This document shows, piece after piece, positions 2,629 to 10,128 of a stretch of 64,000 nt of DNA; the stretch's first letter is position 1, and each line of letters begins with the position of its first letter. The stretch comes from Mycobacteriales bacterium. Its GTDB lineage: Bacteria; Actinomycetota; Actinomycetes; Mycobacteriales; QHCA01. The stretch spans positions 55,899-119,898 of the forward strand of contig JBBRYN010000001.1 in NCBI GenBank assembly GCA_038237645.1, in the 5' to 3' direction. The notes under the pieces are model-generated. The model was not told the DNA's origin and did no database searches. It saw nothing but the letters and a program-made list of their open reading frames with translations. A program made the translations under genes and the position numbers.

Positions 2629-4119
2629 TCAGCTGATGGCCGGCGTCTCGGCCCATCCCTTCGTGCGCTCCACCGCAACTCGCCATCGCTGGTGCTGGCC
2701 GTCGTCGCGAGCCCCCTGGCGAGGATCGAAGCGGCGGTCCAGCCGCCAGGTCTCCTTCAGCTCGTCGGTGGACGACCACACACCGGTGGCCAGGCCGGCC
2801 AGGAAAGCCGCCCCGAGCGCGGTCGTCTCGGTGACCTGCGGGCGGCGGACGGGCACGCCCAGCTGATCGGACTGCAGTTGGCAGAGCAGGTCGTTGGTGC
2901 TGGCCCCCCCGTCGACCGAGAGCTCACCGAGCGGCAGCCGAGCGTCTCCGGTCATCACGTCGACCACATCGCGCACCTCGAAGGCGATCGCCTCGAGCGT
3001 GGCCCGAGCGACATGGGCTCTCGTGGTGCCGCGGGTGATACCGAAGACGGCTCCGCGCGCCTGTGGGTCCCAGTCGGGCGCCCCCAGCCCGGTCAGCGCC
3101 GGGACGAACACCAGACCACCGGAGTCTGGCACGCTGCAAGCCAGCGCTTCCACCTCAGCTGCCTGGCCGATGATGCCCAACCCGTCGCGCAACCATTGCA
3201 CCGCGGCGCCGGTGACGAAGATGGCGCCTTCCAGCGCGTATTTCGGCCCCGAGCCGAGGTCCCACGCCACCGTGGTCAGCAGCCCGTGCTGCGACCGGAC
3301 GGCCCGATCCCCGGTGTTGACCAGCACGAACGACCCGGTGCCGTAGGTGCATTTCGACTGACCTTCGGCGAAGCATGCCTGGCCGAACAACGCGGCCTGC
3401 TGGTCGCCCGCGAGGCCGGCCAACGGGAGGTCGAGGCCGAGGAAGGCGGCCGGATCGGTGCGGCCGATTTCACCGGAGCTGGGCACCACCTTGGGGAGGG
3501 CCGCCATCGGCACGTCGAACAGCTCGCACAGCTCCGCCGACCAACCACCGGCGAAGGTGTCGTAGAGCAGGGTCCGACTGGCGTTCGACGGGTCGGTGAC
3601 GTGCCGCACACCGCCGGTGAGCCGCGCCACGACATAAGAGTCGACGGTGCCGAGGCAGGTGTTGCCCGCGTGCACGCCTGCCCACGCCTGCTCGTCGTGC
3701 TGGGCCAACCAGGACAGCTTCGTGGCGGTGAAGTAGGGATCCAGGCGTAGCCCGGTGAGTTCGGTCACCCGCTCCTCATGACCCGCCGCCCGCCACTGCT
3801 GACAGAGCGCGGCAGTGCGCCGGTCCTGCCACACGACGGCTCGCCGCGGTGCGGCCAGCGTTATGCGATCCCAGAGCACAGCTGTCTCACGTTGGTTGGT
3901 CACTCCCACGCAGGTCGGTGCCTCTGCGCCGGCTTCGACCGCCTGCCGGCACGCCGAGAGCACCGCCTGCCAGATCTGCTCGGGCTCGTGCTCGACCCAT
4001 CCGGGCCGTGGGAAATGCTGGGGAAACTCCTCGTAGCCCCGGGCGTGGACCGTGCCGTCCACGGCGACGAGAATCGCTGTCACGCCGGTGGTCCCGGCGT
4101 CGATCGCCAGCACAGTCAT
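2629..4119 (-). CDS. glpK: Glycerol kinase (FGGY family)
   Basis: 496-aa ORF with MTVLAIDAGTTGVTA..., GWVEHEPEQIW, GVTNQRET, DQQAALFGQ and SVDGGAS, a typical GlpK pattern along the full length. Confidence 0.93.
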   Translation of the reverse strand: MTVLAIDAGTTGVTAILVAVDGTVHARGYEEFPQHFPRPGWVEHEPEQIWQAVLSACRQAVEAGAEAPTCVGVTNQRETAVLWDRITLAAPRRAVVWQDRRTAALCQQWRAAGHEERVTELTGLRLDPYFTATKLSWLAQHDEQAWAGVHAGNTCLGTVDSYVVARLTGGVRHVTDPSNASRTLLYDTFAGGWSAELCELFDVPMAALPKVVPSSGEIGRTDPAAFLGLDLPLAGLAGDQQAALFGQACFAEGQSKCTYGTGSFVLVNTGDRAVRSQHGLLTTVAWDLGSGPKYALEGAIFVTGAAVQWLRDGLGIIGQAAEVEALACSVPDSGGLVFVPALTGLGAPDWDPQARGAVFGITRGTTRAHVARATLEAIAFEVRDVVDVMTGDARLPLGELSVDGGASTNDLLCQLQSDQLGVPVRRPQVTETTALGAAFLAGLATGVWSSTDELKETWRLDRRFDPRQGARDDGQHQRWRVAVERTKGWAETPAIS

Positions 4120-4934
4120 CCGCCGACCGCCTCGCGCAACTTGTCGAGCACCAGCGGGTCGATGGCCCCGGGGAGTGCCCGCTCCTCATAGTTCTCCACT
4201 CCCATCCAGGTCTCCAGGTCCGGTTGGCCGAGGGCGTCGAGATGGCGGCGCACCTCGTCGGCGACCTCGCCTTGCAGGGGAAGGCTGCTGGCCGGGTCAG
4301 GTCTGCCGAAGTGCAACTCGTGCAGCGCCAGCAGCCGCACCAATTCGGTCACCGGCGCCGCGTGGTCGTCGACGCGGAGGTCCACCAGGACATCGCTGCC
4401 GCCGCCGTAGCCGCTACCCGGAGACACCACATAGACCGCCGCGCTCTGCCGCCCCCGGGCGTCACCACCGGCCTTGTCTCCGGCGGCGAGGGCCTCGATC
4501 AGCCGCGTTGCCAGCGGTGCGCCAGGATTGGCGGCCAGCCAGGTCTGCTCCATCTCCTGCGCGACCTCGGCACCGGTCAGGATGTTGCCCTGGCAGGCAT
4601 AGCCGGGCCCGCCGCATCCACCGGCCCAGGCGTTGCAGTCGGCACCGGTGAAGGTGGCGCCGTCGCCGTCCGGCCCGACCACGCCGATCTGCCGGGTCTG
4701 GCGGCCTGGGTCGGCAGCGATCAGTCCGGCGATGACGTGTTCGGCGGGAACGCCGGTCCGCAACAGCGCAAGCGCCTGAGGCCGAAAGGCGAGGTTGGCC
4801 AAGGCCTGGGTCGCGACCGCCCCGACGCCCACTTCGGCGGCCGGGACGGCACTGCCGACGGCGAGGAACTTGCTGGCGACCGCCACGCCGTACGACTGCC
4901 CGTCCAGGCCGCGTGCCACGATGGAAAACGTCAT
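4116..4934 (-). CDS. DUF1028 (Ntn-hydrolase-fold) protein with a C-terminal peptidoglycan-binding-like tail
   Basis: Shows MTFSIVARGLDGQSYGVAVASKFLAVGSAVPAAEVGVGAVATQA, the characteristic DUF1028 N-terminus. Its stop overlaps the glpK ATG (ATGA at 4116-4119). Confidence 0.75.
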   Translation of the reverse strand: MTFSIVARGLDGQSYGVAVASKFLAVGSAVPAAEVGVGAVATQALANLAFRPQALALLRTGVPAEHVIAGLIAADPGRQTRQIGVVGPDGDGATFTGADCNAWAGGCGGPGYACQGNILTGAEVAQEMEQTWLAANPGAPLATRLIEALAAGDKAGGDARGRQSAAVYVVSPGSGYGGGSDVLVDLRVDDHAAPVTELVRLLALHELHFGRPDPASSLPLQGEVADEVRRHLDALGQPDLETWMGVENYEERALPGAIDPLVLDKLREAVGG

Positions 4935-4951
4935 GGCCGGACGATAGTGCG

Positions 4952-6031
4952 CTACCGGCCGGGCTCGAACCAGAATGGCCTGGCGGCGAACCGCAGCTCC
5001 TCGTGGTAGGGCGGATGGCGGCGCCCCCGGTCGTCGCGGTCGGCGGACTCGAGGACAGCCCGTATCGCGTGGCGGTCGCCGATCGCGGCGGGCCCAGCCT
5101 CCGCCCGGGCCACCGGAAGCGCCCGCTCAGGCCGGTCGGGTCGCCAGCGGACGAGCACGACCGAGGGCGCCGGTGCCGGCCACAGTCGCAAGGTGAGCCC
5201 GCGCCAGTCGAACCTGTCGGGCTCAGGCAGCGGTGTTGCGCCCATCCTGGTGAGGGAAGCCGCCGTGCCCCGGCCACGGAGGGGAGCGAGATGGAGGTCG
5301 ATGGAGGAAGGGCGAACCCTCCCGGGCGACCAGACCGCCCGGGCCGACGAGCCGGTCAAGGCGACCTTCGGGTAAGGCCAGTCGTGCGAGAGTTCCTCGA
5401 GCAGGGCTCGGAGAGCGTCGGGGGCAGGGCCGGCCAGCTGGACCGGCAGCCGATCGGCAAGCGGCACCCGCAGTCGAGCGAGCCGTCGGGCCAGCAACCG
5501 ATTGCTCGCCTGCCGGTCGGCCGCCAGCCAGGCCCGGATGGCCTGGTCGTCGGACGCAATCAGCTGCTCGTGCTGGGCCTGCTGCTTGGCGCGCTCCGCG
5601 CGCCGCGTCGCCCGCACCTCGCTCCGGCGTTCTCGCGCCGTGATCGGGGACCTGGACAGCCGCTCGGCGGCCTCCCGGGCCGCGGCATTCTCGCGTACCC
5701 GACGTGCGCCGTCTGCCGAGTCGGCCCGCCGACGTGCAGACTTCCGACCGGCCAGCTCGCACGCCGCTGCGCGGCCCGGTGTCGCGCCGCATGTTGTCAA
5801 CCGCAGCTCCCAGCGCAGGCCACAGAACCCCAGCAGCCGCTGGAGGAGGCCGACAGGCGGGTCGACCCGACGTGCTTCGATCCGGGCGATCAGCGACTGT
5901 GACACAGTCGCGCGTCTGGCCAGGTCGCGTTGACTGAGTCGAGCCAGCCGGCGGCCGTGGCGTAACGCCGCTACGGCGTCGAGCCCGTCGACCTCCCGAG
6001 CGGCAGCCGATCGATGCAGCCCGTTCGCCAC
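4952..6031 (-). CDS. XRE-family HTH protein with an Arg/Glu-rich central region and an uncharacterised C-terminal domain
   Basis: N-terminus is LRHGRRLARLSQRDLARRATVSQSLIARIEARRVDPPVGLLQRLL (HTH_XRE pattern). It lies 17 nt upstream of the DUF1028 gene on the same strand. Confidence 0.65.
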   Translation of the reverse strand: MANGLHRSAAAREVDGLDAVAALRHGRRLARLSQRDLARRATVSQSLIARIEARRVDPPVGLLQRLLGFCGLRWELRLTTCGATPGRAAACELAGRKSARRRADSADGARRVRENAAAREAAERLSRSPITARERRSEVRATRRAERAKQQAQHEQLIASDDQAIRAWLAADRQASNRLLARRLARLRVPLADRLPVQLAGPAPDALRALLEELSHDWPYPKVALTGSSARAVWSPGRVRPSSIDLHLAPLRGRGTAASLTRMGATPLPEPDRFDWRGLTLRLWPAPAPSVVLVRWRPDRPERALPVARAEAGPAAIGDRHAIRAVLESADRDDRGRRHPPYHEELRFAARPFWFEPGR

Positions 6032-6063
6032 GTACCGACCCTCCCGCTAGCCCGAATCGTCTG

Positions 6064-6112
6064 GATGAACCTATGGGGTGAGTCGCCGAGCGACTCACCC
6101 CATAGGTTCATC
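6064..6112. repeat. Perfect 23-bp inverted repeat with a 3-nt centre in the divergent HTH / exoribonuclease intergenic region
   Basis: GATGAACCTATGGGGTGAGTCGC-cga-GCGACTCACCCCATAGGTTCATC, checked pair by pair with 23/23 complementary. It lies about 30 nt upstream of the HTH gene start (6031) and about 90 nt upstream of the exoribonuclease start. Confidence 0.95.
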
Positions 6113-6202
6113 TGTGGAAGGCGGCCCTGCTGTGGACGGCAAGCGAATCGTCCGCAGTCGCACGACTCGGCCGTGCATCTGGTCCGGTACGGTCGGTCGG
6201 TG

Positions 6203-6712
6203 GTGCGACGGGTCTTCTATGACTGCGAGTTCATCGAGGACGGACGAACCATCGACCTCGTGTCGATCGGCGCGGTCGATGAAGAGGGCCGAGAGTTCTA
6301 CGCAGTCTCCACCGAATTCGACCCGAACAAGGCGATCCCCTGGGTACGGGACAACGTCCTGGAAAAGCTGCCACCGCCGGCTGATGCCAGGTGGCGATCC
6401 CTGGAGACCCTCTGCGCCGACTTGCTTTCCTTTCTCACCGAACCGGGCGAGGCTCTGGAGCTGTGGGCGTGGTACGCCGCCTACGACCATGTCGCGCTTT
6501 GCCAACTGTGGGGTGCGATGCCCGCATTGCCACGGGTGGTACCGAGATTCACCAAAGACCTCCGGCAGCGATGGGACGACCTCGGCCGGCCCGCGCTGCC
6601 GCCCGCGCCGTCGGATCAGCACGACTCGCTCGCCGACGCCCGGCACAACCTCGAGCGATGGCTGACAATGGAGGAGCATCGGGGGAGGCACGGTTGGGGC
6701 AACGGCGAGTGA
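6203..6712 (+). CDS. 3'-5' exoribonuclease, Rv2179c-like (DEDD fold)
   Basis: VRRVFYDCEFIEDGRTIDLVSIGAVDEEGREFYAVSTEFDP...ELWAWYAAYDHVALCQLWG...PRFTKDLRQ closely tracks my recollection of M. tuberculosis Rv2179c (MRYFYDTEFIEDGRTIELISIG...). The track ORF (6014) is an upstream extension. GTG at 6203 (or 6200) was chosen to match the Rv2179c N-terminus. Confidence 0.85.
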   Translation: MRRVFYDCEFIEDGRTIDLVSIGAVDEEGREFYAVSTEFDPNKAIPWVRDNVLEKLPPPADARWRSLETLCADLLSFLTEPGEALELWAWYAAYDHVALCQLWGAMPALPRVVPRFTKDLRQRWDDLGRPALPPAPSDQHDSLADARHNLERWLTMEEHRGRHGWGNGE

Positions 6713-6729
6713 CTCGCTACCGTTTGCCC

Positions 6730-10124
<3,395 letters not shown>

Positions 10125-10128
<4 letters not shown>

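Follow-up and report, generated by a model that had tools for sequence, protein, structure and literature searches.

A long perfect palindrome upstream of a rare XRE-family regulator gene in uncultured actinobacteria and its probable role as operator and promoter

At positions 6064–6112 of the window (the whole stretch of DNA that was analysed, 64,000 nucleotides), a perfect palindrome with 23-nt arms and a 3-nt centre (dyad centre at 6088) lies between two divergent genes. On the minus strand, the gene at 4952–6031 encodes a 359-amino acid regulator of the XRE family. Its GTG start codon at 6031 is 32 nt from the end of the repeat and is preceded, at a distance of 7 nt, by a Shine–Dalgarno-like GGGAGGG (6039–6045, minus strand). 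On the plus strand, the gene at 6203–6712 encodes RNase AS, an Rv2179c-like 3'-5' exoribonuclease. This reading frame matched the Rv2179c-like family of Pfam and the RNase AS equivalog of NCBIfam (249 bits, cut-off 200). Its start may be at 6173, 6200 or 6203. The likely start codons (GTG at 6200 or 6203) are 87–90 nt from the repeat, and an automatic gene call in an independent assembly chose the GTG at 6173, 60 nt from the repeat. The original prediction, made from the letters of the window, had named an XRE-family helix-turn-helix (HTH) gene about 30 nt and an exoribonuclease gene about 90 nt away. Both the identities and the distances agree with the domain matches and measurements given here.

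In the region 2629–10128, the minus strand carries genes for a glycerol kinase, a DUF1028 protein and the HTH regulator. Beyond the HTH gene, the plus strand carries the genes for RNase AS, 6-phosphofructokinase, a class II DAHP synthase and a threonine-aldolase-like enzyme. Long antisense open reading frames in this region are the usual artefacts of high G+C content. A block of RNase AS, phosphofructokinase, DAHP synthase and aminotransferase-like genes is common to the window and L003/L004. A literature search on RNase AS and Rv2179c returned nothing on the regulation of this locus.

The two arms (GATGAACCTATGGGGTGAGTCGC at 6064–6086 and GCGACTCACCCCATAGGTTCATC at 6090–6112, with CGA between them) were 100% complementary (23/23, 3 nt apart) in a repeat search of the window. 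This bears out the pairing originally described, as well as the two statements made with it, that such a repeat is not due to chance and that the window holds no second copy. None of 100 dinucleotide-preserving shuffles gave a match, and even when as many as three mismatches were allowed, the 64 kb contained no other copy of an arm. Neither a 14-nt core nor the outer box had additional copies within the 64 kb, and a search of the window for weaker sites or a regulon returned matches at chance level only. The palindrome sequence was identical in an independent assembly (L001, run SRR19962011). Local G+C content was 0.60–0.64 at the repeat versus 0.70–0.80 in the adjacent HTH gene, so that the repeat is, as had been noted, richer in A/T than its surroundings; by direct count, each arm has 13 G or C in 23 positions. 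As single-stranded DNA, the repeat folded into a hairpin with a ΔG of −29 kcal/mol (z = −11.8 relative to shuffles), and the RNA of the 179-nt intergenic region also folded stably (z = −6.6). An intrinsic (Rho-independent) terminator was considered and rejected. A terminator scan returned 0 terminator-like sites, no T-run was present beside either arm, and the neighbouring genes are divergent and begin rather than end here. The repeat is therefore not a terminator, as the original prediction had argued from the divergent genes.

The regulator has an N-terminal HTH domain (residues about 19–73), long helices (85–187) and a C-terminal alpha/beta domain. Residues 21–73 matched the Pfam families HTH_3 (30 bits, cut-off 23) and HTH_31 (28.9 bits, cut-off 27). 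Residues 80–359 (4952–5794, minus strand) had no match in Pfam, NCBIfam or the PDB. An AlphaFold model (AF2, pLDDT 73) consisted of the HTH, the long helices and a compact C-terminal domain, of which the alpha/beta domain at 220–310 was modelled with confidence. Going by this model, the helices could mediate oligomerisation. Structure comparison of the model with Foldseek gave matches to the HTH only, namely DdrO, HipB, ClgR, HigA2 and the C proteins (C.Esp1396I). In a sequence search of the PDB, the best match had an E-value of 0.006 and no relationship extended past the HTH. A conserved basic N-terminal arm (residues 1–20, RHRSAGA.E..GLD) precedes the HTH; it was modelled with low confidence and is therefore probably flexible. 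By analogy with the arms of phage repressors, it could contact DNA outside the inner boxes of the dyad described below.

The regulator family is rare. A search of 5.8 billion clusters returned 15 proteins with 48–100% identity, none of them from a cultured organism, the one named source being a Mycobacteriales MAG (metagenome-assembled genome). When the C-terminal 280 residues were used as an exhaustive phmmer query against 1.84 billion proteins, 9 cluster representatives matched. All family members came from metagenome assemblies and MAGs of uncultured actinobacteria, which were labelled, where a label was given, as Mycobacteriales, Pseudonocardiales or unclassified Actinomycetota. Viral collections yielded one weak protein match to the HTH alone (36% identity over residues 23–75). 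Across the 15 homologs, of which the overall identity was only 48–59%, the segment helix 2-turn-helix 3 (LSQRDLAR.A.VSQS..ARIE) was invariant.

Homologous loci were collected by exact-protein look-up and by scanning 185,579 species genomes with a DNA pattern and JGI metagenomes with a protein pattern. In the metagenome scan, 78 of 80 loci were generic XRE genes and only L016 and L017 belonged to the family. The comparison with orthologous loci, which had been proposed together with the original prediction, found the dyad kept throughout: an equivalent 45–49 bp dyad was present 28–47 nt before the start codon in 13/13 homolog loci with readable upstream DNA. This count consists of 13 full sites, apart from one contig that is cut inside the element, and represents about 12 distinct sequences. 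The arms were perfect in the window (23/23), L014 (22/22), L099 (18/18) and L004 (16/16), each with a different sequence. In L007, L009, L010 and L096 the arms were 85–94% complementary, and in L006 and L097 the dyad was reduced on the side distal to the HTH gene.

The genes around the dyad differed between loci. RNase AS was the divergent gene in the window, L004, L007/L013 and L014; in these loci a DUF1028 or FGGY kinase gene lay downstream of the regulator, except that the contig of L014 ended before any downstream gene. A ROK kinase gene was divergent in L006, L009/L012, L096, L097 and L098, with AAA+/VWA genes downstream where the contig reached that far. A gene for a PALP-ACT enzyme was divergent in L016, and in L010/L017 a co-directional gene for a trypsin-like protease lay upstream, followed by a terminator-like hairpin. 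Across these four neighbourhoods the sole constant partner of the dyad was the HTH gene. As the dyad also occurs where RNase AS is missing, we assign it to the regulator gene and not to the exoribonuclease mRNA. Two of the loci (L004 and L097) came from the same assembly, GCA_020064125.1, one of the RNase AS type and one of the ROK type, and each carries a separate version of the dyad. From the numbering of its contigs, this seems to be a bulk metagenome assembly, so that paralogs in one genome or two organisms are both possible.

The scan of the 185,579 species genomes with a family pattern of 19 specified bases returned five places. Three of these (L012, L013 and L014) were the single site in the respective genome and lay beside an HTH homolog; one was an AT-rich hairpin of Alistipes followed by a T-run, and one (L015, in an Acidothermaceae MAG) had a different architecture. 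The full family motif was thus found beside HTH homologs only. No second copy was present in any of the locus flanks searched, and viral contigs contained no match to the motif. Dispersed copies had been named in the original prediction as the sign of a generic repetitive element; the result was instead one copy in 64 kb and one per genome in three related species genomes. At positions 290–420 of the L015 contig (DASVDW010000097.1), there are two TGAGTCG-N5-CGACTCA palindromes and two tandem 19-nt units with a GACTCA half-site. They lie upstream of an open reading frame that was judged by eye to be DUF222/13E12-like, and the 4.6 kb contig encodes no homolog of the HTH protein.

Conservation within the dyad was arranged in blocks, with the aligned consensus cGAACCTATG-nnn-TGAGTCGc-n3-gCGACTCA-nnn-CATAGGTTCG. 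The inner boxes (TGAGTCG at 6079–6085 and CGACTCA at 6091–6097, with centres 12 bp apart) were nearly invariant in all loci. Their pairs (alignment columns 74–79/87–92) were identical in 13/13 sequences, apart from one pair that was identical in 11/13, and TGAGTC/GACTCA as well as CCT/AGG were invariant or nearly so in the 13 sequences. We propose, on the pattern of conservation, that the inner boxes are contacted by the recognition helices of the HTH. The outer box GAACCTATG (6067–6075) has its mirror in CATAGGTTC (6101–6109), towards RNase AS. The outer box in the HTH-proximal arm was better conserved than its mirror box. Between inner and outer boxes lies a triplet that varies between species (GGG at 6076–6078 and CCC at 6098–6100 in the window). 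Relative to 6088, the centres of the inner boxes are near ±6 and those of the outer boxes near ±17, which would put all four boxes on the same helical face at intervals of about one turn. Since the outer boxes are unlike the inner boxes in sequence, one type of HTH cannot read both. With 45–49 bp and arms of 20–23 nt, the site is far longer than a single XRE dimer requires.

A scan for promoters with the E. coli-type consensus returned 0 promoters. As this consensus is uninformative for an actinobacterium with 70% G+C, we used a script to look for TANNNT, the −10 pattern of actinobacterial promoters. On the HTH-sense strand of the aligned upstream regions (roughly 120 nt), TANNNT occurred at one conserved position, within the HTH-proximal arm, in 12/13 loci, and the 13th locus had CAGGTT. 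In the window, the predicted −10 hexamer of the HTH gene is TAGGTT (6068–6073, minus strand), the sole TANNNT in about 120 nt upstream of the gene. No −35-like hexamer was evident for this predicted promoter. Based on the position of the hexamer, transcription of the HTH gene would start about 7 nt outside the repeat (near 6060–6062, minus strand), leaving a leader of about 30 nt. With the sole −10-like hexamer in the HTH-proximal arm, the start is predicted to fall outside the repeat, and a repressor site would lie over the core promoter. The hexamer is located in the better-conserved proximal outer box, which would thus do double duty. A mirror copy of TAGGTT faces RNase AS (6103–6108, plus strand), with a predicted start near 6114–6116; this mirrored hexamer was intact in 6/13 loci.

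Direct repeats of the form TCC(A/C)CA were found on the distal side of the dyad, all in the same orientation (24 matches, versus 0.36 expected). In the window, the proximal TCCACA (6113–6118, minus strand) directly borders the HTH-distal arm, and the distal TCCACA (6131–6136, minus strand) 18 nt from the proximal copy. One repeat bordered the arm at a constant offset in 11/13 loci; the other lay 18 nt or 28–32 nt beyond. Besides the window, the repeats were present in L004, L006, L007, L009, L010, L014, L016, L017 and L096–L099. They were not mirrored on the HTH side of the dyad, and they may be the site of a second regulator. An assignment of TCCACA as a −35 element was rejected, as its spacing does not fit any −10-like hexamer. 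A second stem-loop was predicted at about 6129–6158 (plus strand; 11 bp stem, 8-nt loop, CTGTGGACGG...CGTCCGCAG). It spans the distal TCCACA and is located between the palindrome and the RNase AS start; by reading, no obvious counterpart was seen in the upstream regions of the homologs.

The arms of the dyad changed together. Ten of the 23 pairs were altered on both arms, and 88% of the cells in the alignment were paired versus 82% in shuffles, none of which reached the observed value (0/500); controls with slid partners had 30–41% of cells paired. The variable triplet, GGG/CCC in the window, was usually altered on both arms at once, to ACC/GGT in L004, to AGT/ACT in L014 and L016, and to AGG/CCT in L007, L098 and L099. 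Several loci tolerated 2–5 mismatches between the arms. Among the inner 20 pairs, read on the HTH-sense strand, there were 20 transversion mismatches, and G:U exceeded A:C by 8 versus 3, a difference that was not significant. The covariation term of RNAalifold was just −0.55 kcal/mol. Simple recognition of an operator by a dimer does not predict co-variation of the arms between the boxes. Since the recognition helix is unchanged, co-evolution of specificity is unlikely. The co-variation might come from selection for a hairpin or cruciform, from contacts with variable parts of the protein, or from template-switch mutation at quasipalindromes. Hotspots of template-switching at quasipalindromes were reportedly described by Ripley in 1982. 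Such mutation brings imperfect inverted repeats closer to perfection (Klaric, Perr and Lovett 2020, PMC7202029). The perfect 23/23 symmetry in the window is probably a secondary feature, and the arms evolve in concert, either by selection or by template-switch mutation.

We consider it probable, on the strength of the sequence comparisons, that the repeat is the autoregulatory operator and the promoter of the adjacent rare XRE regulator. This corresponds to one of two alternatives in the original prediction, the operator of the HTH protein, and it is favoured by the linkage to the regulator gene, the invariant inner boxes and the overlap with the predicted −10 hexamer. If the site is an operator, an invariant recognition helix is expected to face inner boxes that are also invariant, as seen here. 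In addition, the N-terminal domain superposes on those of DdrO, ClgR, HipB, HigA2 and C.Esp1396I, regulators that bind dyad-symmetric operators. These proteins have repressor roles. In the proposed mechanism, a dimer, or possibly a tetramer, of the regulator would place its HTH heads on TGAGTCG-N5-CGACTCA. Counted from the predicted start of the regulator's transcript, the dyad would extend from about −5 to −50. As TAGGTT, the predicted −10 hexamer of the HTH-proximal arm, would be covered, the bound protein would block RNA polymerase and the gene would be under negative autoregulation. Since the other arm holds the mirror −10 hexamer in the window, this protein, once bound, could also stop transcription towards RNase AS. 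What we infer from these patterns is where the −10 hexamer and the start sites lie, that this particular protein is the binder, and that it represses and does not activate.

In a rival reading, the repeat acts as a DNA hairpin or cruciform under negative supercoiling in the divergent promoter region, instead of or besides serving as a duplex binding site; selection for pairing would keep it perfect, and it might be recognised in the extruded form. We regard this as unlikely. It would account for the pairs altered on both sides, which neither the shuffles nor the slid controls reproduced, for perfect or near-perfect arms of differing sequence in the window, L014, L099 and L004, and for the stability of the hairpin. 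By geometry, the covarying triplet between the boxes is where a protein on one face of the helix would see the minor groove, which is also consistent with selection for pairing. However, the mismatches tolerated in several loci, including the transversion mismatches in the inner pairs, do not fit such selection, most of the stem is conserved in sequence and not in pairing alone, and the RNAalifold term is small. Moreover, template-switch mutation gives the same concerted pattern without selection (PMC7202029). The other alternative in the original prediction, that the repeat is a hairpin in the 5' leader of the exoribonuclease mRNA, may be widened to a transcribed RNA hairpin in the leader of either RNase AS or the regulator, acting as an RNase III target, a protective stem or a translational element. 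The stable fold of the intergenic RNA and the excess of G:U over A:C on the HTH-sense strand would be in keeping with it, but that excess is not significant and the transversion mismatches break pairs. The dyad is equally present with a ROK, PALP or co-directional neighbour, that is, where RNase AS is absent. The only −10-like hexamers sit inside the arms and face outwards, which puts both predicted start sites, and thus the transcripts, outside the repeat. Sequence-specific conservation of both arms would also be unexpected for a purely structural stem, and we hold a leader hairpin to be quite improbable. An Rfam family or a cis-regulatory leader of RNase AS was rejected: at a permissive threshold, Rfam gave only two sub-threshold matches to miRNA models in 5000–7500, both on the hairpin (E-values 0.2–1; 22 and 19.5 bits, gathering thresholds 84.5 and 74), and the dyad is present without RNase AS.

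The dyad could also be the operator of a different protein encoded elsewhere, with the adjacent XRE gene as the regulated target. The outer boxes and the strong excess of TCC(A/C)CA repeats do indicate that this region holds at least two recognition elements. The site, however, travels with the rare XRE gene through four neighbourhoods, the full motif was found only beside its homologs in the 185,579 genomes, and the invariant inner boxes match the invariant recognition helix. Autoregulation is, furthermore, the usual arrangement for XRE regulators, and we rate an operator for another protein as improbable. A generic dispersed palindrome (REP- or MITE-like), or a product of chance or assembly, is barely credible. 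The length and perfection of the repeat do resemble REP-type hairpins, and the search of its own genome spanned 64 kb. Yet there was one copy in the window, one per related genome and none in viral contigs, and the position relative to one gene is conserved; the identical sequence in the independent assembly L001 argues against an artefact. A further speculation, likewise improbable in our judgement, combines several of these elements. Within a symmetric promoter that works in both directions, the dyad would be a switch that can extrude as a cruciform or hairpin and is kept perfect by selection. The regulator would read either four boxes on one face or the extruded form and thereby couple supercoiling to the expression of its own gene and the opposite one, with the TCC(A/C)CA repeats as a second input. 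If true, the architecture of the operator would be new, and the sensor domain an uncharacterised one.

If the autoregulatory operator reading is correct, a rare family of regulators from uncultured actinobacteria gains a consensus for its operator and a predicted promoter. The dyad would also be a natural example of the arms of a long operator evolving in concert, which could help to separate selection for symmetry from template-switch mutation. The understanding of gene regulation is unchanged by this reading, as autoregulated XRE repressors with palindromic operators are commonplace.

Among known systems, the XRE autorepressors (DdrO with its RDRM motif, ClgR, 434/P22 c2) are similar in fold and arrangement. 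The HTH superposed on DdrO, ClgR and P22 c2 with 1.5–1.8 Å over about 55 residues (Foldseek), and the regulator's own gene is directly preceded by the dyad-symmetric site, which overlaps the predicted core promoter. Known operators of XRE autorepressors are about 14–20 bp long. In contrast, the dyad described here has 45–49 bp and two different boxes per half-site, and the protein, with 359 amino acids, has a long helical region and a C-terminal domain without a Pfam or PDB match. The C proteins (C.Esp1396I) share the XRE fold and offer a precedent for a four-box site, a long composite operator with more than one dimer. In the structure 3clc, a tetramer of C.Esp1396I is reported to occupy a 35-bp operator. 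Given its length, the element may work like such a composite operator, by analogy. C proteins have about 75–80 amino acids and are encoded beside restriction–modification genes, and their operator consists of two adjacent dimer sites of like sequence. The regulator here is unlike them in being large and in having no restriction–modification genes nearby, and its inner and outer boxes are dissimilar.

The antitoxin repressors HipB and HigA2 autoregulate through palindromes. The regulator shares their HTH fold and had a weak match to a HipB-like subfamily of NCBIfam (E = 4e-4, far below the cut-off). Unlike them, it is without a conserved toxin partner, since DUF1028, an FGGY kinase or an AAA+ ATPase is encoded downstream, depending on the locus. 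PADLOC gave a generic HTH match only and no defence or toxin–antitoxin model. A type II toxin–antitoxin operator was rejected because the downstream genes differ between loci. REP and MITE palindromes are similar in being long, stable, intergenic inverted repeats, but the element here is single-copy and linked to a gene, and its boxes are conserved in sequence across species. The mutational route known from quasipalindrome hotspots matches the species-specific, arm-symmetric changes seen here. It is a mutational process and not a function, however, and leaves the invariant boxes and the linkage to the gene unexplained; template-switch mutation would act on top of an operator. The regulator belongs to no named family beyond the XRE fold, and the element is of an ordinary kind, but unusually long and symmetric for an autoregulatory operator.
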